Assembly: GCA_051251855.1 (NCBI GenBank)
Contig: JBPOGI010000002.1
Span: 32,001 to 96,000, forward strand
Direction of reading: 5' to 3'
DNA: 64,000 nt
From: Roseibacillus sp.
Lineage (GTDB): Bacteria > Verrucomicrobiota > Verrucomicrobiia > Verrucomicrobiales > Akkermansiaceae
This document shows, one piece after another, positions 22,743 through 42,079 of the stretch. The number at the start of each line of letters is the position of its first letter. Position 1 is the stretch's first letter. Made by a program: the position numbers and the translations under genes. A model generated the notes under the pieces. The model had not been told where the DNA came from. It made no database searches and saw nothing but the letters and a program-made list of their open reading frames with translations.

Positions 22743-25700
22743 CTAGCTCGCCAGCTTCAGCATCTCAAAGATCAACTTGCTAAAGCTCTTTGCCTTCTTG
22801 GCATCTCCCAAGAGTTGAAACATCTGGTTTTGGTGGGCGGCACTGCTGTCCATGATTGCGTCGTCCATAGCCTGCGGGAAATCCCCGAGCATTGCTTGCT
22901 CGCTGGTGTTGTTATCAATCTGCTTCATTACCAGTTCGTTCTCTCGGATCTTGTCGCAGACGGTGTGGGCGTAATTCACAAGGTCTTGGTCACTGAGTTT
23001 ATCGGTATTGAACACCTCGTTGAGCCGGTCAATCAGCTGGGAGAGCAGCTCTTCCTTTTTATCCTTGGGACGAGATGAACCAGCGGCGTCGCCTCCCTGA
23101 AGGCCTGGGTTTTCATCTTGGCTCTCCAAGCGGAGATCTTGTTGCCGGAGCTTGCTGAGTCGGTAGTGGCTCAGTTCCACATTGCTCAGGTCTGGCCCTT
23201 CTTCCTCCTCGAAGGTTTCCTTGAGCATTGGGCGGAGATTACGGGCGTAGAGGCTGAGCTTTTCCAAGGCGGTGTCATCGTAGTCTACGATCTGGGACAT
23301 GAACTCGTAGAAGCGAGTAAAGGTTCCCAAGTCCTTCTTGAAGACGTCCAAGGTGTCTTTGGCCTTCTTTGCGTCTTTGAAGCGATTCTCAGCGTTCGTG
23401 ATCAGAACGGTGTCTCTTGTCTTCTTGGCCCGTTCAAACTCGTCCTTGCCGCTCTTGTAGAGCGAGAGAGCTTCCGTATAGCGCACTTGCCATCGTTCAA
23501 CGGCTGGCTTGCAAATATTTGCCAGAGCGGCTGCGCTTTTACTCTTGGAAAAGAAGGCCTCTGCGAATTGCTCGACCTCTGTCCACAGAAAGATGCCGAC
23601 ACCACGGAGCTTCTCGAAGAGGTCAAACACCATATCAGGGTCGGAGACATCGTTGAGTTCCGCCGTCTTGTAGTAGGGGAGAAAGGAGCCCAGAATTTCC
23701 TCGGGCTCATTGAAGAAGTCCAAGACGAAGGTGCCTGACTCAGCCTTTCCAGGATAGGTCCGGTTGAGACGCGACAAGGTTTGCACGCATTCTACGCCCG
23801 CGAGCTTCTTATCAACATACATTGCGCAGAGCTTGGGCTGGTCGAAGCCAGTCTGAAACTTGTTAGCAACGATCATCACTTGATAATCCTCGGTGTCGAA
23901 GGCCTTCCTCATGTCCCTGCCCTTCAGGTTGGGGTTCATGTTGATCTCGGTAAATTTCTCTCCCAGCATTCCACTCGAATTCGGATCCTTTTCGGTGAAT
24001 TCCACTTCTCCCGAGAAGGCCACCATTCCGTAGAGTTTTTCATAGCCTTGCTCAGAGATGTATTTGTCGAAGCCTAGCTTGAAACGCACCGCTTCCTTGC
24101 GAGAGCTAGTCACCACCATGGCTTTAGCCTGACCTCCCAGAAGTCCCATCACATTATCGCGGAAGTGCTCGACGATGACCTGCACCTTCTGGGCAATGTT
24201 GTAGTCATGAAGCCGGACCCATTGATTCAGTTTTACTTTGGCCTTCTTGCTTTCCACTTCGGTGTCTGCCGCTTGGACTTTTAGGGCGAGATTGTAGGCG
24301 ACTTTGTAGTTGGTGTAATTTTTGAGGACATCGAGGATAAACTTTTCCTCAATCGCCTGCCGCATGCTGTAAACGTGGAAGGCTTGGGGCTTGTTCGTTT
24401 TCGAGGGAGCTTCTGCAGGATTCTGAAGACGGCCAAAGAGTTCGAGCGTTTTGGGTTTGGGGGTAGCGGTGAAGGCAAAGAAACTCAGGTTCGAGTTTTC
24501 CCTTCGTGATGCGACCATGGCCTGGACCACTTCTTCGGAAGTGAGAACGTCGTCGTCATCCCGTTCCTCCACCATGAGCACTTCTTTTAGTTGTCGGGCC
24601 GTGGAGCCACTCTGCGAGGAATGCGCTTCGTCTGCGATAATTGCGTAGCTTCTCTCTTTCAGGCTTACGCTGTTCTCAATCGCTTTTAGCACGAATGGAA
24701 ACGTCTGGATGGTGACAATGATGATCGGCTGCGCCACTTCGAGAGCCTTCGCCAGCTTCTCTGATTTAGAGCCCTCTCCTATTTCCTTGTTGATGCAGCC
24801 CACCATGCCGTCGAGGTGCTCAAATTGGTAGATAGTGTCTTGAAGCTGATCGTCGAGAACGGTGCGGTCGGTTACCACAATGACGGATTGAAACTGCTTC
24901 TCACCATTGTCCCGGTAGATAGACGACAACTGATGGGCAGTCCAAGCAATCGAGTTCGATTTACCTGAACCCGCGCTGTGCTGGACAAGATACTTGTGCC
25001 CCGGACCTTCTGTTCGTGCAGTGTCAATGAGCTGATTGACCACGTCCCATTGGTGATAGCGGGGAAAGATCATCGTCTCCTTGCGATACTTTCGCCCGTC
25101 CCAGTCCTCCTTTTCCTCAATTTGTAAGTGGATGAAGCGCGCGAGAATTTTAAGTAGGTTGTCCGGTGCCAGCACCTCGTTCCAGAGATAGTCAGTAGCG
25201 TATTGGTTGACGTCGTCGGGGGTGTCATTGCCTGCCCCACCATCTTCGGTGCCTTTGTTGAAAGGGAGAAAGTAGCTATCGCTTCCTGCCAACTTCGTGC
25301 ACATGTGGGCTTCGTATTGACTCACCGCAAAATGGACCAAGGCTCCTCGTTTGAAGGTGAGCAGCGGTTCTGGTTTCTTAGTCGCGGGGTCAATCGGGAG
25401 ACGCGTCTTCTTATATTGCTTGATGGCTCTCTCACAGGCTTGCTTGAACTCGGACTTGAGTTCCATTGTCACCACCGGAATACCATTGACAAAAAGCACC
25501 AGGTCGATGCGCCAAGCTTTGGCCCTAGCCGCAAGCTTCTCGCCTCCATAAGTGGCCGACGCTTCGCCCAGAAGGTTTTTCTCCTCGATTGTGTGGTCTT
25601 CTTTTGTCCACGGGCTGTAGACCAGTTCTTGCACCACCCGGAGCCGGTTCTGCTTATACCGAGCCATTGTCTCGGGGTTCAGATCGTGCTCCGGCTTAAA

Positions 25701-26039
25701 TTGGCAAAGACTGAAGCGAGTGCCTCGTTCTCTAATCTCGTGCCGCAGAGCGCCCAAGGTGCCAAAGGTTCGTAAGGTCTGGTCGGCGGCATTGGGATCC
25801 GCCTTGTCGAGCTGCTTGGCGACACGCTCGAGGAACTTCTCATTCGCATTGTTCGGATAGAGCTTAGAATACTTCTCCCATTGCTTGGGCTGAGACTCTT
25901 GCACGAAGCCTAGTAGGTCTTCTTCATAGAGCCCCAATTCCCGATTGTATCCGGAAGGGGAGCCCTGCAGCCAACCTTGCGATTGGAATTGGGAAACCAC
26001 ATCGTCTTGGAAGGTGCGTTCGTTTGCTTTGTCGCTCAT
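22743..26039 (-). CDS. hsdR: Type I restriction endonuclease subunit R
   Basis: IDLVLFVNGIP and ELK nuclease motif, HSAGSGKS Walker A, DEAH, FTATPK, QTLSRLNR; start ATG 26039. Confidence 0.95.
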   Translation of the reverse strand: MSDKANERTFQDDVVSQFQSQGWLQGSPSGYNRELGLYEEDLLGFVQESQPKQWEKYSKLYPNNANEKFLERVAKQLDKADPNAADQTLRTFGTLGALRHEIRERGTRFSLCQFKPEHDLNPETMARYKQNRLRVVQELVYSPWTKEDHTIEEKNLLGEASATYGGEKLAARAKAWRIDLVLFVNGIPVVTMELKSEFKQACERAIKQYKKTRLPIDPATKKPEPLLTFKRGALVHFAVSQYEAHMCTKLAGSDSYFLPFNKGTEDGGAGNDTPDDVNQYATDYLWNEVLAPDNLLKILARFIHLQIEEKEDWDGRKYRKETMIFPRYHQWDVVNQLIDTARTEGPGHKYLVQHSAGSGKSNSIAWTAHQLSSIYRDNGEKQFQSVIVVTDRTVLDDQLQDTIYQFEHLDGMVGCINKEIGEGSKSEKLAKALEVAQPIIIVTIQTFPFVLKAIENSVSLKERSYAIIADEAHSSQSGSTARQLKEVLMVEERDDDDVLTSEEVVQAMVASRRENSNLSFFAFTATPKPKTLELFGRLQNPAEAPSKTNKPQAFHVYSMRQAIEEKFILDVLKNYTNYKVAYNLALKVQAADTEVESKKAKVKLNQWVRLHDYNIAQKVQVIVEHFRDNVMGLLGGQAKAMVVTSSRKEAVRFKLGFDKYISEQGYEKLYGMVAFSGEVEFTEKDPNSSGMLGEKFTEINMNPNLKGRDMRKAFDTEDYQVMIVANKFQTGFDQPKLCAMYVDKKLAGVECVQTLSRLNRTYPGKAESGTFVLDFFNEPEEILGSFLPYYKTAELNDVSDPDMVFDLFEKLRGVGIFLWTEVEQFAEAFFSKSKSAAALANICKPAVERWQVRYTEALSLYKSGKDEFERAKKTRDTVLITNAENRFKDAKKAKDTLDVFKKDLGTFTRFYEFMSQIVDYDDTALEKLSLYARNLRPMLKETFEEEEGPDLSNVELSHYRLSKLRQQDLRLESQDENPGLQGGDAAGSSRPKDKKEELLSQLIDRLNEVFNTDKLSDQDLVNYAHTVCDKIRENELVMKQIDNNTSEQAMLGDFPQAMDDAIMDSSAAHQNQMFQLLGDAKKAKSFSKLIFEMLKLAS

Positions 26040-26040
26040 T

Positions 26041-27894
26041 CTATGGTTCTGTGATGGGCTGGGGCTCGAAAGCCCAAATGCGTTCGCAGATTGCTTGATA
26101 GAGATTCTGGCGTTTCTCAATATCGACCTTCTTAAGATCTTGGTGAGGTTCAAATGGAAGGTCGAGTTCCTTGATCATATTGAGGAAGTTTGGATTTCGG
26201 TCGTAGGCCTCTGGGCAGAGAGACTTAACGAGAAGATTCTCGCGAATGTAGTGGGGGCGTTTTTCATGGTAGGGAAGGTCGCCGTAGGACTGATTTGTTC
26301 CTCGCGGGAGAAGAACAAGATTACCAATGTTCTCTCGAAAGGCCTCAAATTCGCTGGGATGCTCGAATTCATCCTGATGGTGTTCGTATTTGTTGGCCCA
26401 AATGTGTTCGATCTCCATCGGCTTACCTTCCGGGAATTGGTAGTCGTCGAAGTTGGAGCTGAGGCCCGACTGTTCGTCGATATAACCGGAAATTCTTGAG
26501 AGGAGAAACTTAATGAAACGACTGTTCGTTCCATGCCTGGAAAACCTCTTCATTCCATCCCAAGTCTCTTCCATTTCATCGAGTTTTAGGGCGAGGATTG
26601 AGTGGAGATCGTCGAGTGATTTACGTCTGATTTCTTTCGTGAGAAGACACATCGTGTAGCGAATCGAGCTGGCACTGAAGTTTCGAAAGTTGATCGACCG
26701 TCGCACAGTGAAAGTTTCGATGAATTTGGCGACAGTGTTCATCTTGGCATCGATGATCTCCTGTGAATCAGACAAGCACAGGGGAGCGAGAAGGAGTTGA
26801 TAAGCGAGCGAGTCGGCGATTCCCCAGCAGCCAGCATAGTAGACGTTTTCCAAAGGTTTGATGAATTCCCATTCGGCTTTTTTCATGCGGAGGTAGGCCA
26901 AAAGGTAGAACTTGAAATCTTGTTGTAGAAAGTTTGAGAAGCCTTCCGCTGAGTTAGAAGTAAGGCTCATCAGGCTGAGGTTCTCTCGGAACCATCCATG
27001 GAAGCGGGTTCCAATTTTCTCAAAGTCTTCGTTGATGGACCCTTTGTGACTGCCTCGAATTGTCTCGGCGTATTGTCCCCGGAGCCATGCTTGCATGAAT
27101 CGCTGGTCTTCATCATCTTTATACTCGTGGAGGTCCTTCATTGCCTTCTTCCACAGATTGTTGGTCGTCTCTCGTTGTTTATTAGATTCGAGTCGAGACA
27201 GGAGATAGCCCTTAAGCATTTCCGTGGGGGTTAGATTGAGCCCCCTATCGTTCATCGTTTCAAAGATGGTGTAGGCGTTGTCATCGGAGTGAGCTACAAT
27301 CTCAACCAAGACCACTCGTTCTTTGAGCCAATCGATAAAATAGGAGTAGGCCTTGGCACCGATCTCTTCTGGGAAGACTCCTTCTATGTCCTTGTAGCGG
27401 GCTGCCATATTTTTAGTAGACTCATCGTCTCCGTCCACTGGCTCATAGTCGCCATTCTTGAAGAGAGCATCCAAGCAGGTGATTCGTTCTTCGACGGTAA
27501 TGTTGAATGATTTGGAACCAAATTTCTCTGAGAAGATCATCGACTCTACCTTCTCGTTCGAACCGAACTTTTCACCAAGGTGGTTTAAGAAAATCATGAA
27601 TAGGGTGAGGGAAGTGAGCCGCTGCTGCCCATCAATGATACTCAACATCCCATCCTTGCTACTCAGTACGTAGGGGCCCAGGTAGTAGCTATTGTAATTC
27701 TCTACCTCGGAACGGCTGTGTCCAGCATTGTAGTTGGCGAGGAAAGCCGCGCTCAGATCCTCCACCAGCTGTTTCATATGCTTTTCTCCCCAGCTGTATT
27801 CTCGCTGAAAGAAATCGACGCTATATTTGCGACTATCGAGCACTTGAAAAATGGTGCGATCATTGGCCTCAATTCTGTGTTCGGAATTACTCAT
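26041..27894 (-). CDS. DUF262-DUF1524 protein (GmrSD-like, modification-dependent restriction type)
   Basis: FQREYSW, IIDGQQRLT, FETMNDRG, EIEHI and NIGNLVLL HNH-like tail. Confidence 0.88.
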   Translation of the reverse strand: MSNSEHRIEANDRTIFQVLDSRKYSVDFFQREYSWGEKHMKQLVEDLSAAFLANYNAGHSRSEVENYNSYYLGPYVLSSKDGMLSIIDGQQRLTSLTLFMIFLNHLGEKFGSNEKVESMIFSEKFGSKSFNITVEERITCLDALFKNGDYEPVDGDDESTKNMAARYKDIEGVFPEEIGAKAYSYFIDWLKERVVLVEIVAHSDDNAYTIFETMNDRGLNLTPTEMLKGYLLSRLESNKQRETTNNLWKKAMKDLHEYKDDEDQRFMQAWLRGQYAETIRGSHKGSINEDFEKIGTRFHGWFRENLSLMSLTSNSAEGFSNFLQQDFKFYLLAYLRMKKAEWEFIKPLENVYYAGCWGIADSLAYQLLLAPLCLSDSQEIIDAKMNTVAKFIETFTVRRSINFRNFSASSIRYTMCLLTKEIRRKSLDDLHSILALKLDEMEETWDGMKRFSRHGTNSRFIKFLLSRISGYIDEQSGLSSNFDDYQFPEGKPMEIEHIWANKYEHHQDEFEHPSEFEAFRENIGNLVLLPRGTNQSYGDLPYHEKRPHYIRENLLVKSLCPEAYDRNPNFLNMIKELDLPFEPHQDLKKVDIEKRQNLYQAICERIWAFEPQPITEP

Positions 27895-30800
27895 GAGTGG
27901 ATGTTTCTTTTGGGGGCTGACCTTTTTTAAGAGCTGTAACGGCGAATGTTCTCCCGTTGACTTCGAAGTCTAGTTTGCGTTCAGGGTGAACCGAAGAAAG
28001 CAGTATGACTTCGGCAATAGGATCTTTGTAATTGAGAAGGCGGCCATCCTGGGAACTTAAGTCTCTTATGATTGTAAACGTGAGGAATTCGTCACTATCG
28101 TCAAACTTGACTGAAACAGTATCACCGACCTCAATCAGATTGTGATTCTCATTCTCTTTTTCTGGTTCTTTCTCGGTAGGGTTGGTTTCGAAAAGAGTTC
28201 CTTGATCGACGACGTTGTTGAATGAGCCTTGGTGCAACGTATCATCTGTCGACTGGTTGGAGGTTGGAGCGGGCGAAGTTGTGAGCGTTACTTGTGAGGC
28301 TTGGTCCTCCTTCTCCTCCTCTAGGATTTCTGCAAGCGACTTGTCTTCAATCTCAACCTCGACTTCCACCATTGTTTCATCCTCATCGTCGGGGAATAGT
28401 TCTTCTTCAACAGGAGCGGGGATGTGGCGGAATTCGACAATCCCTTGCGCACTAGCTAGTCCATCGTGGTGCTGCTCGATTCCATGTTCTTTCAGCACCT
28501 GCAGGAGTTCGCTCCTGGAGGAATCCTTGTCGGAGTAGTAGGAGGGGCCCCAGATGCGATGGAAGGACCACCCGGCTCGTTCTAGGGTCCGTTGACGACT
28601 CATATCTTCGGACCATTTGTGCTCGGGGTGGGCGATGTAGCCATCGCATTCAATCGCGAGCCGTCTCCCGCCCGCATCTTCCACCACAAGGTCGATCCTG
28701 AATCCTGCAGCGGCAATTTGCGTGGAGACCATGTATCCCTCCGTAGAGAGGAAGTCGAAAATCTCCTCTTCAAATGGAGACTCACAATCTTCGCGGCCTT
28801 TGCCCGCAAGCTTCAGGCCCGGGTCTGAAAAGTGGCTAATGAGCTTATGCCTCAGGTCCGTCGATTTGAGACCTTCGAGAGGAATACTGCGGCAGAGATA
28901 CATCCTGTCCTTAGCTCGTGATGCGGCAACGTTGAAGCGTTGTGCCAGGGGGACCGAAGTAGCTGCGATCTTGCTGACGTGGTTTACCATCGAGAGAAAG
29001 ACGACATCGAATTCGCTACCTTGGAAGGTGGAAGAGTCGCCACATCGGATACTGTGGCGCAGGATTATTTCTTCAGAAATCTCAGCTTGAATCTTATCCC
29101 AAATGAACCGCGACTGCTCGTTTCCCAGCAGGGTGACAATGCCGATAGAACGGTCTCCGAAATCTTCATCCTCAGTGAGCGTGATGATTTCGTCCAAGAT
29201 GTAATCTGCTTCGGCTTCGTTTGTCTTGCTGCCCTCGGGACGAATTCCGCCTTCAAGGTAGACATCAATCAAAACGGGAGACATCCGCTCGGTGGCCTTA
29301 GGAACGCGTAGGCATTTGATCTCGCCGTCGTAGAAGTGTTTGCTCGAAAAGTTAATGATAGGCTCAGCACAGCGAAAGTGCTCACGGAGGCGAATGCTAG
29401 CGGCTCCGTAGGCAATCGAAGCCAGATCGTAGATGGAGTCTCTGATCGTCATCGAGGAACCGTAGGGGAGGTCCTTTAGGAATCGTTGGTAGAGGGCCAT
29501 GACGGCGTCGGTTCTAGTGCCCACTTGGAGTGGGCTAACCTGTTTGTCGTCTCCCACCACTAATACTTTTTTACCTCTGGCAATGGCAGGAAGCGCCTTT
29601 AGGTCACTTTGCGAGGCCTCATCGATAATGACGAGGTCAAACAAGCCAAAGCCAGCGGGAAGACTCTCGCTGACTCGCCATTGCGGCATGATCCAGCAGC
29701 GGATTGCTTCGTTAGCCTGCGCCAAGGCTTTCTGTGCTTCAGCTCGATGAAAGGGGGCCAGCTTACCGGTTCCTTTTCCAATCCTCTTGATATGAGTGAC
29801 GAACTGGTTGAGCGCGGTGACCAGATTGGGTTTGGCCGCAAAGGTTTCCTTCAGTTTAAGCCAAGTGCGTTTCACTGCTAGGTCCTCATAATCGTTCGCC
29901 AGTTTCTTTTCTTTGGAGAGCCGTGCGGTATTTAATTTGAGCAGCTCCGACTTGGCATCGATGTTCTTCAGGTAAGCCTTGCGCATGGCCCAATGCCAAG
30001 TTTCGGAGATGCGAGGTGGAAGGACGGACTCATCCTCTGTTTCCTCATCATAGACGTGCGAAGTCACAGCGACGGCGAGCTTACGTGCCCCAGCTTCCTT
30101 GAGGCGAAGGGCTAGGGTGCCAATTTCCTGAAGAGATGGGATTTTTGAGTGCAGGAGACTGCATTGATTCAAGAGGCTTCGCCATTCCTCACCAAGATCG
30201 CCCAGCTCTTGTTCGGAAGAGCCAAGCTTAGATTTTAGAAAGTCAAACTGGGCGAGATAGTTGGGGTTGCCATCAAGGAGGTCGAGGAGCTTTTGTCTTT
30301 CAGTAGAAGCCGCGCGACCATCGAACTCGCCAATCACGAGTCCAAGAGACGCGATGATGGAGTCCAAGAAGCTCGGTTTTTTAAGGCTTAGGCTCAACAA
30401 CGAATCTGTTGGCTGATCCAGATCTATCAATTCGCCAACATTCGCCAAGTGTTCGCGAAGCTCTTGCTTGCTGAAGGCCCAAATTCCCTCAACCTGCTTC
30501 ACGATAGGGCGGAAGTTTGAGTAGACCGAGACTCCCGCGTCCGTTGGCAATTTGGGTGTCGAGAGACTATCTGCCAACAAGTTCCACTCTTTCGCCAGCT
30601 GGTTGCCAGCAATGTGTAATTCAATCCAACGCTTCACGTCTTGCCAGTCTTCTGCGCCCGTTGGAGCGTCTCCTCGGACTGTAATCGCTTGCACTGCTTT
30701 GCTGAGCCCCCGGGATGAAAGTCTACCGACAAGGCCGAATGGTTTCTCGCCTTCAGCGGCTTTGGTGATGGGAGGCAGGAGTTCCTCTAGGTCAACGCTC

Positions 30801-33688
30801 TCGCTAGGAAGAGCTACTGGCTTTAGGGCGTAGCTCCTGGCTTCCAAGTCGTTCTCCCGGCAAGCCTTGATACAGCGATCAATAGATTCACGGAAGACGT
30901 GATCCACTCCCTCTAGATTCTCAGGAAGAGCGGCTGCATTGTGGTAGCAACAGGAGACCAGATGCTGCCAACCTCCTTTGAAGGTGAAGGCGAGAGCATC
31001 TCTTTGCTTCTCAAGCTCTGTGCGTGTATTGGAAGCACTCGGCCGTTGGTCAGCCTGGAGATATTGTTTGGCGGGGTATTGGGTGAGTGCATCTAACTCT
31101 TTTCGAGAGACTGAGTAGGAGCAAAGGTTCTTATGCAGATTGGCACACTCTTCCACTGTGGGGAGTTCGCTCGGATCGAGAATGGCATCGGAGTCCACAG
31201 ACACATGCTCTCCTGCCGACTTGCGGGCGGCACGTAGTTGCTCAAAGAACGCGCCATCGATAGTGGTGTCTTCCCAACCGTGTTCGGGATCGAGTTCATC
31301 TTGGAAGAAGGTGTGTTGGTCCGCACTCTCGGCGTCCTCTTCAGCAAGTTGGCGTGGTGAATCACATCCAATGTGTTCTGGGGGAGGGGTGCGGTAGCGA
31401 CTCGCGAGGATGTCGGTTTGCTTTTCGTTGAGAAGAAGCTCCTTGTGGCTCCGCTCGATAACCGCCGCCAATGACTCGACCTCTTTTTCCAGAGTGGTGG
31501 AGTTCAGCTGCAGGATATCGGTCGTGATCCGGTTGACGCTGGACTCCAGCTCCTCTTGCCCTTCGCGGTCACTGTCTAGAAGCAGCCCTGTGAGCATCTG
31601 AATGCCGTCTGGGAGCTGCGATTTGAGGACCTTGAGTGCCGGTGTTTTCTGGGAGGTGACAAGGACTCGTTTTCCGGTGGCGAGGTAGTGACTGATGACG
31701 TTCGCAATGGTGTGGGTCTTTCCGGTTCCGGGAGGCCCTTGTAGGACCACTCCTTCACTGCTTTCTAACTTTCGGATGACCTCGACTTGCTCCTGATTAT
31801 AGGCCTTGGGAAAATAGAGAGAACGGAGTGTGCCCTGGAGGCCGGAATCAGACTCCACGTGAGAGAATCCCCGGAAGGAGTCCTGCGATTCCGGATAGGG
31901 CACCTCTCGTCTGATCGCGATATCGTCCAAGGCGCTGGTGAGGACCCCGTCATTTTCCGCGATGGCCTTCAGCTTCTGCACATCTTGCAGCATGTAGTTG
32001 GCTGAGCGGGTCTGGATCATGACCGCCCAGTCGAGGGTGAAGGTGACAGCCTCGGCTTTGTCCGGCCTGGTCTCGGAGAACGTGGTGCTGCTGTCGATCT
32101 GGCCAGCATCGACCGTCAGAATTTTACGGAGCCGGTCAGTGTCGAATGGGGTCAGGTTTCCTTGCTCTGACTCTGGTGCGAGTTGGGCGCGGATATTCTT
32201 TTCGAACACCGCCGCTCCCTCAGGGAATTCTTCCAGAAAGGCGTGGATGTTGCAGAGAGGAGTTCGGTCGAGGCCTGTAATCTTCAGAGTGAGGCTATCA
32301 GCGCTGCCAACAAATTCGACCGGAATAGCAAGGAGAGGAAAGCGCAGCCGCTCGGGACCAGAGCGATAAGTCATGCCCACCCCCCACACCATTTCCTGTG
32401 GATTGGCTGCCGTTCCGGTTTGGAGCTGCTGACGATAGGAAAAGAGGTCTTGGTAGAGCTTAATGGTCTTGCGCCTTTTCGCTTCCTCTACCGACCAACG
32501 TTCCCAATCGGGAAAGTAACTCTCCCACTCGTGTTGGACCTCAAGGTAGTCCTCCAGTTTGTGCACCACAAAGACGCTTTCTGGAGGAGTGAGCGGCAAT
32601 TCTTTGGCGGGATCATCTTCAGATAGTTCGGCAATCTCCTTCTTCCGCTGCTCAAATTCTTCCCAGAGTAACGCGGTGGCCTCCTCATCCAAGACGCTGA
32701 TTTCCGCTGCCAGTTCCGGAGTCCTGTCAGGATCATCTACCACCATCGTCCAAGCATCCAAGATTTCGGGTAAGGCTGGCGGCTCGATGGGCTTCAGGCG
32801 CTCAATAGACAGCCAGCATGAGGAGTCTGGGTTTTCGTCTCCGAGCAAGATTCCCGGCAGTCCCTCAATGGCCTCGTTAGTTAGGTCGCACCAACGGATG
32901 CGAGAGTCTGCTCGAATGTCGCAGAGAGGAGTCAGGTCCATCTTGTACCACTCTTCGAGAAAGCCGAACATCTTGGAGAGGTTTGGGGCGAGGCCAGGAT
33001 TTTGTTCAGCAGTGGGGGGCATCAGGTCAGTGGAATTTGTGGACTGAGAGGGCTCAGGAGAGACTTCTTTATCGTTTTGGGATGATGAATTGTGCTCTGG
33101 GAGATGCAACGAACCTTTGTCGGTAAGTGTCCACGAATAGTCGGTTTCGTCGATTTTGACGAAACCGCGTGCTTGTAAGTCATAAAGTTCCCGATTGATC
33201 GACTTTTTCTCGTCCTCAAAGAAAGAAGCCATCTCTTTGGCCTTTGTATGTGGGTTCAGGTGGAGAAAGGCAATGATCGCGGTCAGTCGCTCAGCAGTCC
33301 TCTGCTGGTCCGGCGTTGTAGAGGAGCTCTTTTCTGACCTCCATGGGAGGAGGTGCTCGTTCTCTTTGCCGAGCTGAATCCAGTGCGGAGTTGTCTGTCC
33401 AGCTAGAATGGTGGGGAGGTGCTTGCGGAGATTCCAAGCCAAATAGGCCGCCCCCTCTTCCCGAGAGGATACCTCGTCGGGCACTTCAAATCGAATCTCG
33501 GCGAGCGTACGGGAGGTTTGCAGGATTCCCGTAAAGAGAACAGAAGGCTGAAAGTTTCGACCTTGTACTCGAAGGGCTCCCAAGGAGAGGTTCCCAAAGT
33601 CATAGCTCAGTTCAGAGAGATCGTATTCGTCCTGCTCAGTCACCGGCTCGAAGCCAAACTCAGGAAGGAAGGTCCACAAATCACACAT
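27887..33688 (-). CDS. Large SF1 (Upf1/DNA2-like) helicase fused to a Vsr/DUF559-like nuclease, with N-terminal winged helix and C-terminal GreA/B-like domain
   Basis: QGPPGTGKT, IIDEASQ, VGDDKQ, EHFRC, FQGSE, FNVAASRA; nuclease ESPFE, RIDLVV, IECDG, RQRTLERAGW. Confidence 0.85.
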   Translation of the reverse strand: MCDLWTFLPEFGFEPVTEQDEYDLSELSYDFGNLSLGALRVQGRNFQPSVLFTGILQTSRTLAEIRFEVPDEVSSREEGAAYLAWNLRKHLPTILAGQTTPHWIQLGKENEHLLPWRSEKSSSTTPDQQRTAERLTAIIAFLHLNPHTKAKEMASFFEDEKKSINRELYDLQARGFVKIDETDYSWTLTDKGSLHLPEHNSSSQNDKEVSPEPSQSTNSTDLMPPTAEQNPGLAPNLSKMFGFLEEWYKMDLTPLCDIRADSRIRWCDLTNEAIEGLPGILLGDENPDSSCWLSIERLKPIEPPALPEILDAWTMVVDDPDRTPELAAEISVLDEEATALLWEEFEQRKKEIAELSEDDPAKELPLTPPESVFVVHKLEDYLEVQHEWESYFPDWERWSVEEAKRRKTIKLYQDLFSYRQQLQTGTAANPQEMVWGVGMTYRSGPERLRFPLLAIPVEFVGSADSLTLKITGLDRTPLCNIHAFLEEFPEGAAVFEKNIRAQLAPESEQGNLTPFDTDRLRKILTVDAGQIDSSTTFSETRPDKAEAVTFTLDWAVMIQTRSANYMLQDVQKLKAIAENDGVLTSALDDIAIRREVPYPESQDSFRGFSHVESDSGLQGTLRSLYFPKAYNQEQVEVIRKLESSEGVVLQGPPGTGKTHTIANVISHYLATGKRVLVTSQKTPALKVLKSQLPDGIQMLTGLLLDSDREGQEELESSVNRITTDILQLNSTTLEKEVESLAAVIERSHKELLLNEKQTDILASRYRTPPPEHIGCDSPRQLAEEDAESADQHTFFQDELDPEHGWEDTTIDGAFFEQLRAARKSAGEHVSVDSDAILDPSELPTVEECANLHKNLCSYSVSRKELDALTQYPAKQYLQADQRPSASNTRTELEKQRDALAFTFKGGWQHLVSCCYHNAAALPENLEGVDHVFRESIDRCIKACRENDLEARSYALKPVALPSESVDLEELLPPITKAAEGEKPFGLVGRLSSRGLSKAVQAITVRGDAPTGAEDWQDVKRWIELHIAGNQLAKEWNLLADSLSTPKLPTDAGVSVYSNFRPIVKQVEGIWAFSKQELREHLANVGELIDLDQPTDSLLSLSLKKPSFLDSIIASLGLVIGEFDGRAASTERQKLLDLLDGNPNYLAQFDFLKSKLGSSEQELGDLGEEWRSLLNQCSLLHSKIPSLQEIGTLALRLKEAGARKLAVAVTSHVYDEETEDESVLPPRISETWHWAMRKAYLKNIDAKSELLKLNTARLSKEKKLANDYEDLAVKRTWLKLKETFAAKPNLVTALNQFVTHIKRIGKGTGKLAPFHRAEAQKALAQANEAIRCWIMPQWRVSESLPAGFGLFDLVIIDEASQSDLKALPAIARGKKVLVVGDDKQVSPLQVGTRTDAVMALYQRFLKDLPYGSSMTIRDSIYDLASIAYGAASIRLREHFRCAEPIINFSSKHFYDGEIKCLRVPKATERMSPVLIDVYLEGGIRPEGSKTNEAEADYILDEIITLTEDEDFGDRSIGIVTLLGNEQSRFIWDKIQAEISEEIILRHSIRCGDSSTFQGSEFDVVFLSMVNHVSKIAATSVPLAQRFNVAASRAKDRMYLCRSIPLEGLKSTDLRHKLISHFSDPGLKLAGKGREDCESPFEEEIFDFLSTEGYMVSTQIAAAGFRIDLVVEDAGGRRLAIECDGYIAHPEHKWSEDMSRQRTLERAGWSFHRIWGPSYYSDKDSSRSELLQVLKEHGIEQHHDGLASAQGIVEFRHIPAPVEEELFPDDEDETMVEVEVEIEDKSLAEILEEEKEDQASQVTLTTSPAPTSNQSTDDTLHQGSFNNVVDQGTLFETNPTEKEPEKENENHNLIEVGDTVSVKFDDSDEFLTFTIIRDLSSQDGRLLNYKDPIAEVILLSSVHPERKLDFEVNGRTFAVTALKKGQPPKETSTHE

Positions 33689-33690
33689 GG

Positions 33691-34947
33691 TTAGAGAACG
33701 GGATTTGTTTCGGCTTGCTCATGAAGCTGCTCAAGAAGTTTGACGTAAATCATCGCCCGCGAGATTAGTTCTTTGGCAAATTCAGTTCTTTTCTTTAAAT
33801 CAAAAAAATCAGCGATGACGTTGTCGGTCATGACCCAAGGATGTTCTAAGTTGTGGTAGCCTACGGGCCACATTTCGCCGTGCCAAGGAGCTAGCGGATC
33901 GGCCTTGTGGACTTCGTTTTCTTCACTCTCAACGCATAGGAGCTCATCAAGTACAGCCAGAGTAGAAGCCTCTTTTTTGGTTGATTCGCCAATGTTCCAT
34001 TTGGACTCTATCCCGATGACCAGAGCGCTTCTCTTGGCAAAATGAAGAATTACAATTTGATAGCGAGTGGCGGCAAAAGGACCTGAGGCTGGCGATAGTC
34101 TAATTGATCCCAAAGGATCTTTTCCGAACCGATTGTCAATAAAGTTGGCGCGTAGTTTGCCCGGATAGTCAGGTGGAAGTTCTGCAATTAAACTTTCAGC
34201 AAGGAGATCGAGGGCTCTTGCTTTGACTTCCTCAACGCCAGCGTTGAAGTCCGCTCGCATACGAATGAGGTTGGGATTGGCGACGAGGTGATCGGCGATG
34301 TCTTTCATAGCTTGGTGTTCGAGTGTTCGACCGGTAAGGGTCCGGACCAAGTGGCGGTATTGGAGGAGGACTTGGTTTACAGGGATGATTGAGAAGGTTG
34401 CGGATAGACAGCTATCGAGCCAAGGGAGGATATGGTCTCGATAGGAAATACGAAGATAATCAGCTCCCTCGTGGGTGTAAGATTCTTTTCCGTCCAAAGT
34501 GAGATAAATGAGGAGATTGTTTTCTGGATAGTTGTCCTCAAGGTATTTCGCGTAGCGGGCGAGTTGTCTCGGTTGTTCGACTGCATCGATCTTATTTTCA
34601 ATCGCAATGCCCATTTCGGACGATTCGAGGAGGAGATCAATCTGGCCTTGTGCTGTGATAGCTTCTTTGCGGACCTCAAAAGAATCACTCTGAAAGTCTT
34701 TGGGTGCTTCTTTAAGAGAATCGAAGAAGAGGCTGAGAAAGAGTTCTCCGCAATCGTGAGTCCCCAACGGGTTGAGAAGATTATGTATGAAGCGGGTGTG
34801 GAGCCTCACTTCGTCATTCGCCTTTAGGACAGTGGTGAAGACGTTAAAATTAGAATGAGTCGCGCGAGCGCGCTCCTCATTGCGAACTCGCCACTCCTGC
34901 ACCAAGTCAGAGAGTGATGAAAGTTGATTAAAGTCGGCGGTGGTCAT
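33691..34947 (-). CDS. PD-(D/E)XK nuclease (PDDEXK_4-like)
   Basis: FNVF, EVRLHTRFI, LLNP, GQIDLLL, IAIENKI, QLARY, IYLTLDG. Confidence 0.85.
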   Translation of the reverse strand: MTTADFNQLSSLSDLVQEWRVRNEERARATHSNFNVFTTVLKANDEVRLHTRFIHNLLNPLGTHDCGELFLSLFFDSLKEAPKDFQSDSFEVRKEAITAQGQIDLLLESSEMGIAIENKIDAVEQPRQLARYAKYLEDNYPENNLLIYLTLDGKESYTHEGADYLRISYRDHILPWLDSCLSATFSIIPVNQVLLQYRHLVRTLTGRTLEHQAMKDIADHLVANPNLIRMRADFNAGVEEVKARALDLLAESLIAELPPDYPGKLRANFIDNRFGKDPLGSIRLSPASGPFAATRYQIVILHFAKRSALVIGIESKWNIGESTKKEASTLAVLDELLCVESEENEVHKADPLAPWHGEMWPVGYHNLEHPWVMTDNVIADFFDLKKRTEFAKELISRAMIYVKLLEQLHEQAETNPVL

Positions 34948-35009
34948 GATGGGATTGGCTGAGGTCGTAGAGCCTATCGTTTTAAGACGAAGTTTAAGAG
35001 CAAGAGCTG

Positions 35010-35696
35010 TTACAAATGCCCTCCCGGTCGAGGGAGGTCATCCCAATTTCCATCAAAGCAATTTGCCGCTGTGCCTACAAACGCTTCGAAAAATCGTCGC
35101 CGCATATCGGAGTCTTCTTTGAATACTGACATCCAAACGCCAAAAAAACCGTAGCCCTTTGCTACATCCGTGATGGTTTCTCGCATTTCATCAGTGTCGT
35201 TTCTTGTAAGCGCGGCAAATTTTCTGATGGCAAGTTCCCACACTAATTCTCGGTTTGCGAATCGCGCGTCTCGCTCGGCAGGTTGTTTTTCGGGTGGTTG
35301 TCCCGGATGCCGATCTAAACCTACGAGATCGATGAGTTCTACGGCTTTGTCTTTAAGCTCGGAGGATAGGCCATCTGCGGTTCCAATAAGACCGCCTGGT
35401 TGATAGCCGATGGCTCTAAGAGTATTGTCTTTGTCCGGCCAGACAAAGTCGTTGTCGTTTGTGGGTTTTGCTTTCTTTACAGAATTACAACTCTTGCAAG
35501 CCAAGAGGAAGTTGGTCCAATCTTTTTCTCTCTCCTCGTCTAGGCTTTTCGGAGAGACGTGTTCGACAGCAAGCTCGCTTGGGAAATGACGCTCGCAATA
35601 GGAGCAATAACATCCTAGGCGTTCTTCGAGATCTCCAATGGCGTCACCGTAGTGACTGTATTCTCTGGGAGCGCTGCCTCTTTCTACCGGTCTCAT
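35010..35696 (-). CDS. HNH endonuclease (PtuB-like)
   Basis: YCSYCE, VEHVSPK, WTNFLLACKSCN; overlaps the upstream ATPase stop. Confidence 0.85.
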   Translation of the reverse strand: MRPVERGSAPREYSHYGDAIGDLEERLGCYCSYCERHFPSELAVEHVSPKSLDEEREKDWTNFLLACKSCNSVKKAKPTNDNDFVWPDKDNTLRAIGYQPGGLIGTADGLSSELKDKAVELIDLVGLDRHPGQPPEKQPAERDARFANRELVWELAIRKFAALTRNDTDEMRETITDVAKGYGFFGVWMSVFKEDSDMRRRFFEAFVGTAANCFDGNWDDLPRPGGHL

Positions 35697-37168
35697 TGGT
35701 CTTCGTGTTGTAGCTCTTCGGACTTGAGCAATGCATGGAGAGCAGGGTGCGAAGTGAAGGGCTCGGACGCTTCTCGATACGCCAATTTGGCCTCCTTGAT
35801 GCTTTCGTGGTTTTGGGGTTCTTCACGCAGTAGGGAAAAATATCTTGTTGCGGCTTTACTTAGTTCTTCAGCCCGTCTTCCTCGCTGTGGTAAATCGATT
35901 CCTTGAATGTCTTCGACAATGTCTTCGATACTTCTGCTTTCGGCTTCGAAGGAATGAGGTCCAGCCTTGGTTACCTTCATAATTTTTTCGACTGGGACGC
36001 TTTGAATGACGAAGGGGGAATGGGTCGTGGCGATGAACTGGCAGGATGGAAAAAGCTCTTCCAGATAGGGGACGATCATTCGTTGCCATCTCGGGTGAAG
36101 GTGAACGTCGATCTCGTCGATAAGAATGATTGCTGATGATTCTGTGATTGGGGAGGATGGATCAAGAGACAGGTTCCACGCGATGTCAATGAACAGGGAG
36201 AGCAACCGCTGTTCCCCATCCGAGAGTTGACCAATCGGCAAGCTGCCATCGGGTGTGTCGATGACAATCCTTGGCACGAGTTTGACTTCCGCCACATATG
36301 AATCGATGAACGACGGTTCCCTTAGATCTGTAACCTCAAGTGCGACTTGGGCAAGTTGTCTAAAGGGTGTTGATACGATGCCTAGTTTTTCATTGCCCTT
36401 TATAAAACCATCGGCATTTATAGTGATACTCCTTTCTTCAATGCCGTTGAAAACATCGGGATTGAGCTGGAAGATTCTCATCAAGAGTTCCGGCATGTCT
36501 TTGACAAAATGAGCCTCTTCTTTGTCTCCAAGATGTTTTTCATCTACTCTGTTGAGCGAGCAAGAGTAAGCTTCAAACCGCCAATGAAATTTAGTAATTC
36601 GATCAGAAATTCTAGAGAGAGCATCTTCTAGAAAAGCTCGAATTTCAAGGCCACGGACTGAACTCTCGCTAGTAGGGTTGGCAGGCTGACTAACGCGTTG
36701 TGGGCGTTGCTTGGATTCGTGCTCTAGTTGGTAAATTCTTTCCTGAAAATCAATGTTACGGGTCGAGCTTTTATTTTTTGGCGTCCATGGGGGTCTTCCT
36801 CTCAAGTTGTTTACAAGAGCTTCATTCGACCCATAGAAGAGGATCTTTATATCAGATTTGTCTCCTCCACGATAAAGTCGATCACCGAATCGACGCTGGT
36901 ATTGAAAGTCTCGTTTTTGATGATTATCGCCGACCAGAGAAGTTAAAATTTGAAGGCTGTCTTCTCCAAGTCGTATGTCTAAGTTGTTCAACGCATGTCT
37001 TTTTAAAGAGATTTTCCTCGGTGAACCCAAGCACATGAAGATTGAGCGAAGCACGGTAGTTTTTCCAAATCCGTTTTCGCCGACCAAAAGATTGAAGCCT
37101 TTATTAAAACTGTATTTAGCTTCCGCGAACTGTCTCACGTTATTCAATCGAAGTTTTTCAATGTGCAT
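35693..37168 (-). CDS. ABC/AAA_21-type ATPase (PtuA-like)
   Basis: GENGFGKT Walker A, LSDGE signature, LIDEIDVHLHPRWQ, ATTHSP. Confidence 0.88.
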   Translation of the reverse strand: MHIEKLRLNNVRQFAEAKYSFNKGFNLLVGENGFGKTTVLRSIFMCLGSPRKISLKRHALNNLDIRLGEDSLQILTSLVGDNHQKRDFQYQRRFGDRLYRGGDKSDIKILFYGSNEALVNNLRGRPPWTPKNKSSTRNIDFQERIYQLEHESKQRPQRVSQPANPTSESSVRGLEIRAFLEDALSRISDRITKFHWRFEAYSCSLNRVDEKHLGDKEEAHFVKDMPELLMRIFQLNPDVFNGIEERSITINADGFIKGNEKLGIVSTPFRQLAQVALEVTDLREPSFIDSYVAEVKLVPRIVIDTPDGSLPIGQLSDGEQRLLSLFIDIAWNLSLDPSSPITESSAIILIDEIDVHLHPRWQRMIVPYLEELFPSCQFIATTHSPFVIQSVPVEKIMKVTKAGPHSFEAESRSIEDIVEDIQGIDLPQRGRRAEELSKAATRYFSLLREEPQNHESIKEAKLAYREASEPFTSHPALHALLKSEELQHEDQ

Positions 37169-37183
37169 ATTATTGGAGCTGGT

Positions 37184-38514
37184 TTAGATGTTACGGACGT
37201 CGATCTTGCCGGTGACGGCGGCGGAGATGAGGGCGGTCCGGCGTTCTTGAAGGAGGGCGATTTGGGTTTCTGCTTTTGCGTTTGAATCGTCAAACTTTTC
37301 GGTGAATTCATTCAAGTAAGCCAAGATTTCGGGCAGCTCGTCATTGCTAGGAATTGCGATGGGAATATTGCCTAAGTCTTCCATAGAAAGATTTGGCTGC
37401 GCAGCTTGGACAGAATTTAGGCTGATTGAGTTAAGAGCCACATCTGTTCCGAGCCATAAATCCATCCAATGAGAGAAGTGTTTTTTAAAGAGTCGTAGAT
37501 AGCAGACTGCCTGATTTGTGTTGGAAGGTAGTAACTCTCTTTGCAGAACTGCCGATTTTCCAGTGGTGGCTCCTGCTATTACTACAAGAACATCGTTTTC
37601 CTCGAGATTTCCGCGAGAAAGGATCTTATGAGAATTCTGAGAAATGAAAAATTCGGGAGTATTAGAGACACCAGTTGTGGTGATGTTTTCAGCTTTTAAG
37701 AATCTGACTCCTGAGTCAATGAACTCAGCGCCGACCGTCGACGGAGTAGTTCCCTTTGAAATGATTGAGCAAAGGTTCTTTATGCGTTTTACCGACCAAT
37801 GTTCAGGGACTTGGCCGAGCCATTCGATGCCGGAGTCTTTGAGGGGGGCCTGGGGATTGAGGCCTTTGGTGACGGCGTGGCTGATGACGGCTTGGCGTTT
37901 TTCTTTGAGCAGGGCAATCAGCTCTTGCTGCTTCTCGATCAAAAGGTCGATCTTCCCCGTCTCGTGGTCGAGGAATTTGGCGATTTGTATTTGTTCGGGG
38001 AGGGGTGGCTTGGGTGAGTCGAAATTTCCAAGCTCTTCATTAGAGATTTCAAGAAAAGTGCTACCTCGACCGAGAACGTTCAATTTTTCGGAACTCACCA
38101 GCAGGAAGTAGAATAGAAACTTAAAGTCTGTGTTCTTTTCAACAACTAGCGACTTACAGCCTTGGTTTGTGCAAAGGTTGGTTGAAGCGATTCCGAGGGT
38201 TCCGATTGGGGCTCTTGATGAGAGAATTAGAGAACTTTGTGGAACCAGAGATGTCCCACAGGATTCATAACCTTGTTTAGTAATGCTTCGCGCTCCTCTT
38301 GTGATGTAGGGAGTGGAGTCCTTGCCCAAATCAGCAGGTGTTACCCATGGTATGTCACCATCCCAAAACCGAGTAGTATCAGATTTGGGTGTAGAGCCGT
38401 TGTGAAGCAGGCATAGGCGCTTGATCGTTGATGTAATCCAGTGATTAGGAAGCTCCCCCAACCACTCAATCCCCGAATCCTGATACTCTGGATAGGCTTG
38501 ATACCTTCCGGTTT

Positions 38515-38518
<4 letters not shown>
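37184..38518 (-). CDS. hsdS: Type I RM specificity subunit S
   Basis: Two TRDs with repeated [18 protein letters not shown] and [17 protein letters not shown] 38518 overlaps the hsdM stop. Confidence 0.95.
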
Positions 38519-40836
<2,318 letters not shown>

Positions 40837-40945
40837 ACAGAGTGTGTCCCCCTAAGCTGACTAAGTCACCGCAAGGCGGCAATGATGAAGTCCTCGAAGC
40901 TTGTTCATGGGAAGGGAGCCTGCGGACCGGTTGAGGGCCTAGAAT

Positions 40946-42079
40946 TCAAGCGGAAGGGACGAGGGGCGGGCCCTCAGTGGTGTTTGTCCTTTTGTGGGGC
41001 TCCGAACGCACAAGAGAGCCGTCGTGAAAGGACGAAGGGAACTCTCGTTTCTGGAGGTCGAGGGGCCATTCTTCCCACCTGCCACCATGTGGATCCCGGA
41101 CTTTTAGGGGGAAGCCGTTGTCTAGAATATTCGCCCCGAGCTGCTTCATGAAGAAGGCGGTCTCGCTCTGCTGGCATTGTGATTGAATCGAGCGGGCCCA
41201 ATCGAGATCAAATGGTCGCGCGAGCTTGCCGCTTTCGCCACCCACGATGGCCCAGTCGATTCCTTGCAGATCGAGAGTGACGTCTTCCCGCAGGGGCTCG
41301 ATGCTGAGGCCACGAACTTTGGCAGGAACCTTTCTGAGGTCGGCGATTCGACTGGAGGTGGCTTGGCTGGTGATCGTGGTCATGGCCACAAGATTGTCGG
41401 GCCAGGTCTGACCTTGGGACTCAAGCCACTGAGCAAATTCGGCCATTCGCTTGGGACGCTTGGTCAACCATTGCCAGATGTGACGCTGGCCTTGAGGGCT
41501 GGTGACGCTGTCGATGACTTCGGTTTTCAGGTAGTCGAATCCAATGGACTTGGAAAGGGCGTCACCCATATCGGAGACGAAGATCAAGCGTGGTAGGTTG
41601 TCGAGCCAAGGTGAGCCTTTAGTCTTCTTTCCCCAGAGGTCGGGGAGCTTAGCAGCCTTCGCGATCCGCCCCGGGAACATCTCGGGGCGCTCGAAGATGG
41701 CGGCGTATCCTTTCACGGAAGGAATTGACCAATCGGAAGGTTTCCCTCCCCGATAGGCATGCAGAATGGCGGCATAACAGGTGAGGATTTGCTCGATTTT
41801 GTCGAGCCAGTAGTGGGCGGCGACGTCAGCAATCAGTCTTTCTAACTTGAGGGCGAGCTCGACTCGGTCGTGATAGATCTGGGTCGAGTATTGATAGGAA
41901 TTGATTGCCGTGCGAACGGCAGTCGTGATTGGCTCCTTCCCTTGTTTGGAGAGAGACAAAGCAAGGGCGATGAGTTCGGACTTTATCTTGGAAGGATTGG
42001 GCCACAGTTCACAACCATCACATCCCATGGAAGGATTGGCGGTGGTGTGAGTCCATTGAATTTTGGTGGTTAGGCTCAT
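40946..42079 (-). CDS. DUF5131 (phage Gp37/Gp68-like) protein
   Basis: TKIQWT, NPSMGCDGC, CYA, IFVSDMGD, QWLTKRP, LSIEPL, IDWAIVGGESG, FFMKQLG. Confidence 0.88.
   Translation of the reverse strand: MSLTTKIQWTHTTANPSMGCDGCELWPNPSKIKSELIALALSLSKQGKEPITTAVRTAINSYQYSTQIYHDRVELALKLERLIADVAAHYWLDKIEQILTCYAAILHAYRGGKPSDWSIPSVKGYAAIFERPEMFPGRIAKAAKLPDLWGKKTKGSPWLDNLPRLIFVSDMGDALSKSIGFDYLKTEVIDSVTSPQGQRHIWQWLTKRPKRMAEFAQWLESQGQTWPDNLVAMTTITSQATSSRIADLRKVPAKVRGLSIEPLREDVTLDLQGIDWAIVGGESGKLARPFDLDWARSIQSQCQQSETAFFMKQLGANILDNGFPLKVRDPHGGRWEEWPLDLQKREFPSSFHDGSLVRSEPHKRTNTTEGPPLVPSA

Follow-up and report, generated by a model that had tools for sequence, protein, structure and literature searches.

A Z-alpha-type winged helix on a defence-like helicase-nuclease of Roseibacillus and its possible role in reading nucleic-acid conformation

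The window analysed here is a 64,000-nucleotide stretch from a Roseibacillus genome (Verrucomicrobiota, Akkermansiaceae; assembly GCA_051251855.1, contig JBPOGI010000002.1, positions 32,001 to 96,000), and our subject is a winged helix near the N-terminus of a large helicase-nuclease encoded on its minus strand. A first-pass annotation of the window had likened this segment to Z-alpha, the Z-form nucleic acid binding domain of ADAR1 and ZBP1, while allowing that it could also be a generic winged helix-turn-helix (wHTH). Profile searches with orthologous domains indicate that it very probably belongs to the Z-alpha family or is the closest bacterial sister of that family. The host enzyme lies among antiphage genes, and related domains recur on other helicases with defence-like architectures, so we also weigh what such a domain may do there.

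The helicase-nuclease gene and its N-terminal domain

The gene and the parts of its product are laid out as follows.

27887..33688, minus strand: helicase-nuclease gene, an open reading frame of 1933 amino acids that combines a superfamily 1 (SF1) helicase with a Vsr-like nuclease and is related to Hhe, ProA and PDC-S37
33335..33688, minus strand: N-terminal region, residues 1-118, without known family; found only in the window protein and the orthologue P0003
33110..33313, minus strand: putative Z-alpha-type winged helix, residues ~126-193, from the AlphaFold2 model and profile matches to solved Z-alpha domains
33170..33208, minus strand: recognition helix alpha3, residues 161-173 KKSINRELYDLQA, bearing K161, K162, N165, R166 and Y169
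33131..33133, minus strand: codon of W186 in wing strand beta3 (wing K-I-D-E-T-D-Y-S-W)
32984..33109, minus strand: Ser/Pro/Gln/Thr-rich linker, residues 194-235, from sequence; predicted local distance difference test (pLDDT) of 35 in the model beyond the domain
31814..32983, minus strand: conserved pre-helicase region, residues 236-625 (LEEWYKM...), with invariant columns and common to all relatives
28895..31801, minus strand: SF1 helicase core, residues 630-1598 (Pfam AAA_11 at 630-706, AAA_12 at 1429-1598, with a long insertion)
28496..28774, minus strand: REase_MTES_1575 (Vsr-like) nuclease domain, residues 1639-1731 (PF18741, 1.4e-27, 96.1 bits against a cut-off of 38.2)
27938..28135, minus strand: small C-terminal domain, residues 1852-1917, faintly GreA/GreB-C-like

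Translation of positions 33119-33295 on the minus strand gives residues 132-190, AERLTAIIAFLHLNPHTKAKEMASFFEDEKKSINRELYDLQARGFVKIDETDYSWTLTD. The residues that the first-pass annotation had matched to the binding surface of ADAR1 Z-alpha (K161, K162, N165, R166, Y169 and W186) are all present when counted from M1, with a spacing of 17 residues from Y169 to W186, and the wing indeed lacks prolines, reading D-Y-S-W. N165 and Y169 lie in alpha3 and form the N-x3-Y pair that N173 and Y177 make in ADAR1, and W186, the counterpart of ADAR1 W195, aligns with the wing Trp of ZBP1 Zbeta. HMMER alignments match N165 and Y169 to the Asn and Tyr in ...KKEINRVLYSL... of the ADAR1 chain 9b83_A, bring N, Y and W into register with ZBP1 Zbeta (3eyi, 4ka4) across an ungapped wing, and pair the N and Y of alpha3 with those of the ORF112 and PKZ Z-alpha domains. 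The Zbeta wing (D-E-Q-S-K-A-W) is likewise free of prolines. In all six-frame open frames of at least 80 amino acids (3,976,155 residues) from the 4.96-Mb genome to which the window belongs, this domain holds the single instance of the pattern K-x3-N-R-x2-Y-x(15-19)-W. By itself, the motif is weak evidence of kinship.

The rest of the protein looks like an antiphage enzyme. Walker A (GPPGTGKT) and motif II (DEAS) of the helicase core are both intact in the sequence, and PADLOC models match it as PDC-S37 (5.1e-69, residues 1168-1797), Hhe (6.5e-34) and MkoA (5.5e-34). Equivalog level is not reached for either of the two NCBIfam models (NF042953, NF058533) of the Hhe and ProA families, antiphage_ProA (228.9 bits against a cut-off of 1500) and Hhe_antiphage (161.9 bits against 2000), and judged by these scores the protein is a relative of the Hhe and ProA families and not a member of them. 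DUF4011 was not detected in it. The pre-helicase region has neither a Pfam match nor a PDB sequence match, and it is also present in three distant relatives (L022-L024). The linker ahead of it is probably a flexible tether, and both these distant relatives and P0007, a close one, start just past its position. For the first 118 residues, a Pfam search at E<=1 gave no match and a single-sequence fold of residues 1-200 was uninformative (pLDDT 45); a counterpart exists in P0003, which runs 41 residues further upstream, and in none of P0004 to P0009. The C-terminal domain scores just 12.9 bits (E 0.11) against Pfam GreA_GreB, and the precomputed annotation of P0007 includes PF01272.

Kinship of the winged helix

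The likeness to Z-alpha is backed beyond the motif by profiles of orthologous domains, searched against the PDB (177,635 distinct sequences) and against 1.84 billion representative proteins. The solved members used for comparison are ZBP1/DAI Zbeta (3eyi, 4ka4, 2l4m), CyHV-3 ORF112 (4hob, 4wcg), PKZ (4kmf, 2rvc), ADAR1 (1qbj, 3f21) and poxvirus E3 (1sfu, 1oyi). Used alone as a phmmer query against the PDB, the window domain finds ZBP1 Zbeta first (E 0.0096), and 8 of its 13 matches belong to the Z-alpha family. A profile of seven orthologous domains (A2) returns Z-alpha chains of ORF112, ZBP1 Zbeta and PKZ as its first seven matches, with E values of 8.6e-6 to 4.3e-5, ahead of a MarR protein at 0.017; at E<=10, Z-alpha chains make up 20 of the 26 matches. 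The first-pass annotation had named a better match to other wHTH families as what would speak against it, and the A2 values run the other way. A MarR-, HTH_24- or ArsR-type family as best match was rejected on the same figures and on the Pfam scores given below.

Profiles built from subsets of the family behave alike. One made from the three orthologues without Asn and Arg (A4) still ranks ORF112 Z-alpha first (5e-4), with 7 of 8 matches in Z-alpha, so the likeness is not carried by the motif. Another made from the window clade alone (A5) reaches ZBP1 Zbeta at 2.8e-5, aligning residues 6-61 including the Trp, with the wing ungapped. With 15 motif-bearing domains (A6), the PDB search gives ORF112 at 1e-11, PKZ at 1e-10, ADAR1 at 1.8e-9 to 2.5e-7, poxvirus E3 at ~5e-7 and ZBP1 Zbeta at ~1e-6; its first 21 matches are all Z-alpha and the first other is MarR at 3.5e-4. 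Since the members of A6 were picked by the motif, the invariance of N, Y and W within it is there by construction. A7 was assembled from 29 domains regardless of motif, namely the seven orthologues and 22 of the 24 single-domain matches described below (fragments of 38 and 46 residues were excluded), and gives ORF112 at 1.4e-11, ADAR1 at 2.7e-11 and PKZ at 2e-9, with the best natural non-Z-alpha chain at 2.7e-6. Z-alpha chains thus come first in every one of these searches, and it is the profile searches, not the motif or the Pfam score alone, that lift the Z-alpha assignment above chance.

Among the 1.84 billion proteins, A2 matches 74 at E<=1e-3. Of these, at least 27 score at or above the Pfam z-alpha cut-off, including four of ADAR type (A_deamin with dsrm), and much of the remainder consists of multi-repeat HTH_24 proteins whose scores are summed over repeats. 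The best-matched segment holds N-x3-Y...W in 30 of the 74. In 24 matches the best single domain scores 30 bits or more: 11 have the full N-x3-Y...W, one ends after N-x3-Y, and 12 are without the motif (eight are generic wHTHs, three belong to the family but have lost it, and one is a fragment of 38 residues). Three of the A2 matches, P0022 (21.0 bits), P0027 (26.6) and P0058 (27.8), also pass Pfam z-alpha and can thus be regarded as intermediate sequences.

The predicted fold is compatible with Z-alpha and, to judge from the structure searches, is not diagnostic of it. AlphaFold2, run on residues 120-200 with a five-sequence alignment, gave a mean pLDDT of 86.3 (95-96 in the core) and a winged helix with alpha1 at 126-144, alpha2 at 150-157, alpha3 at 161-173, beta2 at 177-180 and beta3 at 185-188 (H7-25, H31-38, H42-54, E58-61 and E66-69 in model numbering). 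N165, R166 and Y169 are on alpha3 and W186 is on beta3. The elements follow the order alpha1-beta1-alpha2-alpha3-beta2-beta3, a fold common to many other wHTH families. A Foldseek search of the PDB returns CggR, ZBP1 Zbeta, MarR, O-methyltransferase dimerisation domains, ORF112 and PKZ, all at E values of 3e-3 to 2e-2; Zbeta ranks third (template modelling score 0.90 on the target, root-mean-square deviation (rmsd) 1.0 A, 29% identity). In VIA-align the model reaches Z 10.9 with both ADAR1 Z-alpha (3f21; 63 of 67 residues superposed at an rmsd of 1.4 A) and PKZ Z-alpha (4kmf; 61 of 62 residues at 1.1 A). Superposition on Z-alpha, which the first-pass annotation had proposed as a check, is therefore close, but CggR (Z 12.8) and MarR (about 11.5) superpose as well. 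A search of BFVD gives a similar mixture of wHTHs, including poxvirus E3-like proteins, all of them weak. One weak BFVD neighbour, A0A8S5QI74, is a siphovirus protein fragment annotated 'Z DNA-binding protein', and phages may encode domains of the Z-alpha type too.

We consider it very improbable that this is an ordinary bacterial wHTH with a chance resemblance to Z-alpha, singled out for a short motif. The generic alternative raised by the first-pass annotation does fit the fold searches, and a Pfam score at background level, ArsR/MarR-like neighbours and non-specific structure matches all lean its way; the sequence profiles contradict it. In the PDB, Z-alpha leads for all three independent sub-profiles, one of them without the Asn/Arg motif; ADAR-type and other Pfam-positive z-alpha proteins emerge from the 1.84 billion; and the unselected A7 reaches E 1e-11.

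Relatives, other carriers and the defence island

Orthologues were found by word-indexed searches. Six relatives (P0003, P0004, P0005, P0006, P0008 and P0009) are proteins of the same kind with the domain in the equivalent position. P0003 and P0004 retain KK..NR..Y..W, and the corresponding stretch is KTEINRVLY...W in P0008, which belongs to the other clade and shares just 35% identity across the domain. In P0005, P0006 and P0009 Asn and Arg are replaced by S/L and L/F/M, with Tyr and Trp kept. The conservation of N, Y and W in homologues, on which the first-pass annotation had staked part of its case, thus holds in some measure: across the 12 assessable helicase-linked orthologues W is present in 12 and Y in 11, but the full N-x3-Y...W in only six. 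Both clades seem to have inherited the motif from their ancestor, with later losses in some lineages. Pfam z-alpha scores of orthologues are 20.1, 19.1 and 20.4 bits. A scan of metagenome contigs yielded the P0005 locus only, the A2 profile found no relative in viral contigs, and tblastn of the domain against 50,697 phage records gave no match.

Outside these orthologues, motif-bearing domains appear on several kinds of helicase. P0047 (1672 amino acids) is a second helicase-nuclease of the same architecture (PDC-S37 at 1.2e-66) and bears the motif; P0080 and P0022 are GajB-like UvrD helicases with an N-x3-Y...W domain at the N-terminus; and P0077 is an SF2 helicase resembling type IV restriction enzymes and PbeA, with N-x3-Y at its C-terminus. 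Small proteins are also among the motif-bearing A2 matches. The GajB-, PDC-S37- and type IV restriction enzyme-like architectures of carriers such as P0047, P0080, P0022 and P0077 suggest that these are prokaryotic. The Z-alpha-type domain looks like a recurring module of defence helicases. The N-x3-Y(...W) type of domain is present, too, in P0076, a 649-amino-acid protein without a Pfam family.

One small protein, P0012 (176 amino acids), consists of just the two end modules of the window enzyme, joined without a helicase or nuclease in the middle. A Z-alpha-type wHTH (30% identical, with Ser replacing Asn) makes up the N-terminal half of P0012, and a faintly GreA/GreB-C-like domain (41% identical, E 7e-13; 20.4 bits against Pfam GreA_GreB) the C-terminal half. 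The two end modules may work together, or P0012 may be a deletion derivative.

Such an arrangement, in which the domain is paired with a GreA/B-like domain and no enzyme, fits the idea of a module for regulation or protein binding, such as an autoinhibitory lid, an operon repressor or a dimerisation element, whose Z-alpha ancestry would be irrelevant to its present role. That close relatives dispense with the domain, and that P0005, P0006, P0009 and P0011 have a hydrophobic alpha3 face (S/L-L/M-F-L-Y) like that of a protein interface, points in the same direction. We nonetheless hold this explanation to be quite unlikely. In the window clade alpha3 is basic and polar (KKSINRELY), as is typical of nucleic-acid contact, the domain sits in cis on a 1933-amino-acid enzyme instead of being a regulator in its own right, and a scan around the operon found neither operator-like repeats nor promoter signals above shuffled background.

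The neighbours on either side of the helicase-nuclease are these.

38515-40836, minus strand: type I restriction-modification (R-M) HsdM (Pfam N6_Mtase, HsdM_N)
37184-38695, minus strand: type I R-M HsdS (Pfam Methylase_S)
35693-37168, minus strand: Septu PtuA (PADLOC 7.6e-60)
35010-35696, minus strand: Septu PtuB (PADLOC 3.9e-76)
33691..34947, minus strand: PD-(D/E)XK protein, PDC-S26 candidate (PADLOC PDC-S26 9.2e-65; Pfam PDDEXK_4), upstream of the helicase-nuclease
26041-27894, minus strand: GmrSD type IV restriction enzyme (Pfam GmrSD_N/GmrSD_C), with an 8-nt overlap with the stop of the helicase-nuclease
22743-26153, minus strand: type I HsdR (Pfam HSDR_N, ResIII, T1R_D3-like)

HsdM, HsdS, PtuA, PtuB, PDC-S26, the helicase-nuclease, GmrSD and HsdR form a single minus-strand array (22743-40836) with tiny gaps or overlaps, and the stop of the PDC-S26 candidate lies 2 nt ahead of the start codon of the helicase-nuclease. 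Four defence units (Septu PtuAB, PDC-S26, the helicase-nuclease and GmrSD) sit between hsdS and hsdR, and from its family matches and gene order the array is a type I R-M operon with a defence island set into it. The description of the host as a prokaryotic defence-like enzyme is accordingly borne out by its helicase and nuclease families, its PADLOC matches and its neighbours. A promoter and terminator scan of 26000-41500 found no signal or operator-like repeat above shuffled background. A DUF5131 gene lies at 40946-42079, and a group II intron-type reverse transcriptase/maturase (RVT_N, RVT_1, GIIM) at 43667-45481, just past the island. At the P0005 locus (L025 599-922), the gene upstream of the helicase-nuclease is a 107-amino-acid N-terminal piece that is HsdM-like by eye, so the P0005 relative may also adjoin R-M remnants.

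A possible reader of nucleic-acid conformation

The reading we favour is that the domain binds Z-form or Z-prone (underwound) DNA or RNA duplex, and that it would guide or license the helicase and nuclease on phage nucleic acid; we put its probability at roughly 45%. N165, Y169 and W186 would make up a Z-alpha-like binding face. N-x3-Y is described as essential for Z binding, with a contribution from the pPxW wing, in part of PMC11298590. The acidic, proline-free wing of the window domain, as in ZBP1 Zbeta, predicts a binder rather than a converter, and the domain would then recognise pre-formed Z or strained duplex without B-to-Z conversion. Held on a low-complexity linker of ~40 residues, it could act as a tethered antenna, a reader of nucleic-acid conformation. 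Polymerases and helicases drive Z-DNA through negative supercoiling (in a section of PMC11293857), and the antenna might concentrate the enzyme locally on, or free its activity at, phage DNA or RNA that bears (cytosine) modifications or is under heavy transcription or replication. The Z-alpha-type module would be accessory, because close relatives work without it.

Several observations weigh against this reading. Pfam z-alpha (PF02295), the check that the first-pass annotation had put forward, is the top family for the domain, with MarR_2, HTH_24 and other Pfam wHTH families lower and further under their own cut-offs, but its 18.1-18.5 bits fall below the gathering cut-off of 21. In a scan of 401 genomes of the phylum with the same model, the window site ranks seventh at 17.7 bits and two genomes have sites above the cut-off; a per-genome E of 0.017 over 401 genomes leads one to expect ~7 such matches. 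None of the eight other top sites examined has N-x3-Y, and all are ordinary wHTHs. The Pfam score alone is background, and only score and motif together are unique. In the same genomes A2, too, scores ordinary wHTHs at 16-26 bits, a sign of the general kinship among such wHTHs; those matches are confined to alpha1 to alpha3 and have no N-x3-Y...W. Language-model neighbours in the ESM Atlas (residues 126-197) are small ArsR/MarR-like wHTH clusters only, at up to 0.90, and in the structure searches Z-alpha entries are mixed with CggR, MarR and DtxR at similar scores, so that structure cannot decide the family. The pPxW of ADAR1 (P192/P193) has no equivalent in the acidic wing (E-T-D-Y-S-W), and positive wing charge is what favours B-to-Z conversion, as stated in part of PMC9881149. 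Asn or Tyr has been lost in 6 of the 12 assessable orthologues (P0005, P0006, P0009, P0011, P0012 and P0018). P0007, from Roseibacillus persicicus and 80% identical overall, begins past the linker and has no domain, and neither have three relatives 32-34% identical from Verrucomicrobiales, Verrucomicrobiia and Proteobacteria metagenome-assembled genomes; these absences mark it as an optional N-terminal module. Finally, two bacterial 'Z-alpha-like' domains that have been tested showed no Z-DNA binding, but these had neither the N nor the Y, according to an excerpt of PMC11298590.

Some of these points would be equally at home with a true Z-alpha relative that has no Z-form specificity and anchors right-handed duplex, junctions or forks, as many N-terminal helicase wHTHs do. 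This explanation is the less likely one in our view, if a substantial one. The fold is that of a generic DNA-binding wHTH, the wing is acidic and proline-free, half of the orthologues keep the domain despite having lost Asn or Tyr, the bacterial Z-alpha-like domains assayed in PMC11298590 did not bind Z-DNA, and some Z-alpha domains bind B-DNA too, as part of PMC9881149 notes. Yet ZBP1 Zbeta has a similar wing and was solved in complex with Z-DNA, going by the title of 3eyi. N-x3-Y and W are also kept across clades only ~35% identical and across unrelated helicase classes, a pattern not easily accounted for unless the Z-alpha contact face is under selection.

A comparison with known systems sharpens what would be unusual about Z-form or strained-duplex binding on such an enzyme. 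With the solved Z-alpha domains the window domain has in common its wHTH topology, the N-x3-Y of alpha3 and the Trp of beta3 in register, and similarity from alpha1 to alpha3; with ZBP1 Zbeta it shares a wing of the same length, acidic and proline-free. It differs from them in being bacterial, in its single copy instead of a tandem pair, in the missing pPxW, in a Pfam score under the cut-off, and in having a helicase-nuclease as its fusion partner where theirs is a deaminase, kinase or RHIM protein. Two groups of bacterial wHTHs have likewise been proposed as Z-alpha-related. In those described in PMC11298590, sigma-54-interacting regulators, Ser and Asn stand at the N173 and Y177 positions, whereas the window domain has the canonical Asn and Tyr; in the arsR subset of PMC11293857 Arg replaces Asn and the wing is longer, unlike the window domain on its defence enzyme. 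Bacterial candidates in PMC8775963 are generic structure-based predictions, and Z-alpha on PNP-domain immune proteins is reported from arthropods and nematodes only, within an excerpt of 10.1101/2023.01.24.525353.

On the side of the enzyme, the window protein resembles Hhe, ProA and PDC-S37 in having an AAA_11/AAA_12 SF1 helicase and an MTES_1575 nuclease on one polypeptide in a defence island. According to 10.1101/2024.10.10.617714, Hhe combines helicase and nuclease domains in one gene, and phage DNA-metabolism functions seem to trigger it. The matches of the window protein to these systems are limited to the helicase and nuclease parts, and their models contain no N-terminal Z-alpha-type domain. 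A full-text literature search, with subscription-only papers and bioRxiv supplements outside its scope, returned no canonical-motif Z-alpha on a bacterial defence helicase.

In the papers considered here, Z-alpha is treated as belonging to animal innate immunity and to the large DNA viruses that counter it, and the bacterial candidates they describe are without the key residues. A wider proposal, which we put forward tentatively and regard as doubtful at present, is that bacteria own real Z-nucleic-acid sensors: canonical Asn/Tyr/Trp Z-alpha domains fused to several classes of anti-phage helicase (SF1-Vsr, GajB-like UvrD and SF2 type IV-like) that would read left-handed or underwound phage DNA or RNA for destruction, in which case animal Z-sensing would have a prokaryotic counterpart or origin. 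If true, this would be the first sensor of Z-form or strained nucleic acid described in bacterial defence, and it would lengthen the list of immune modules common to bacteria and animals. As an expressible unit of ~70 residues, the domain would make it possible to examine Z-form or strained nucleic acid as a potential danger signal of phage infection, and its relatives would offer new natural Z-alpha variants with proline-free, acidic wings in which Z binding may be studied apart from B-to-Z conversion.

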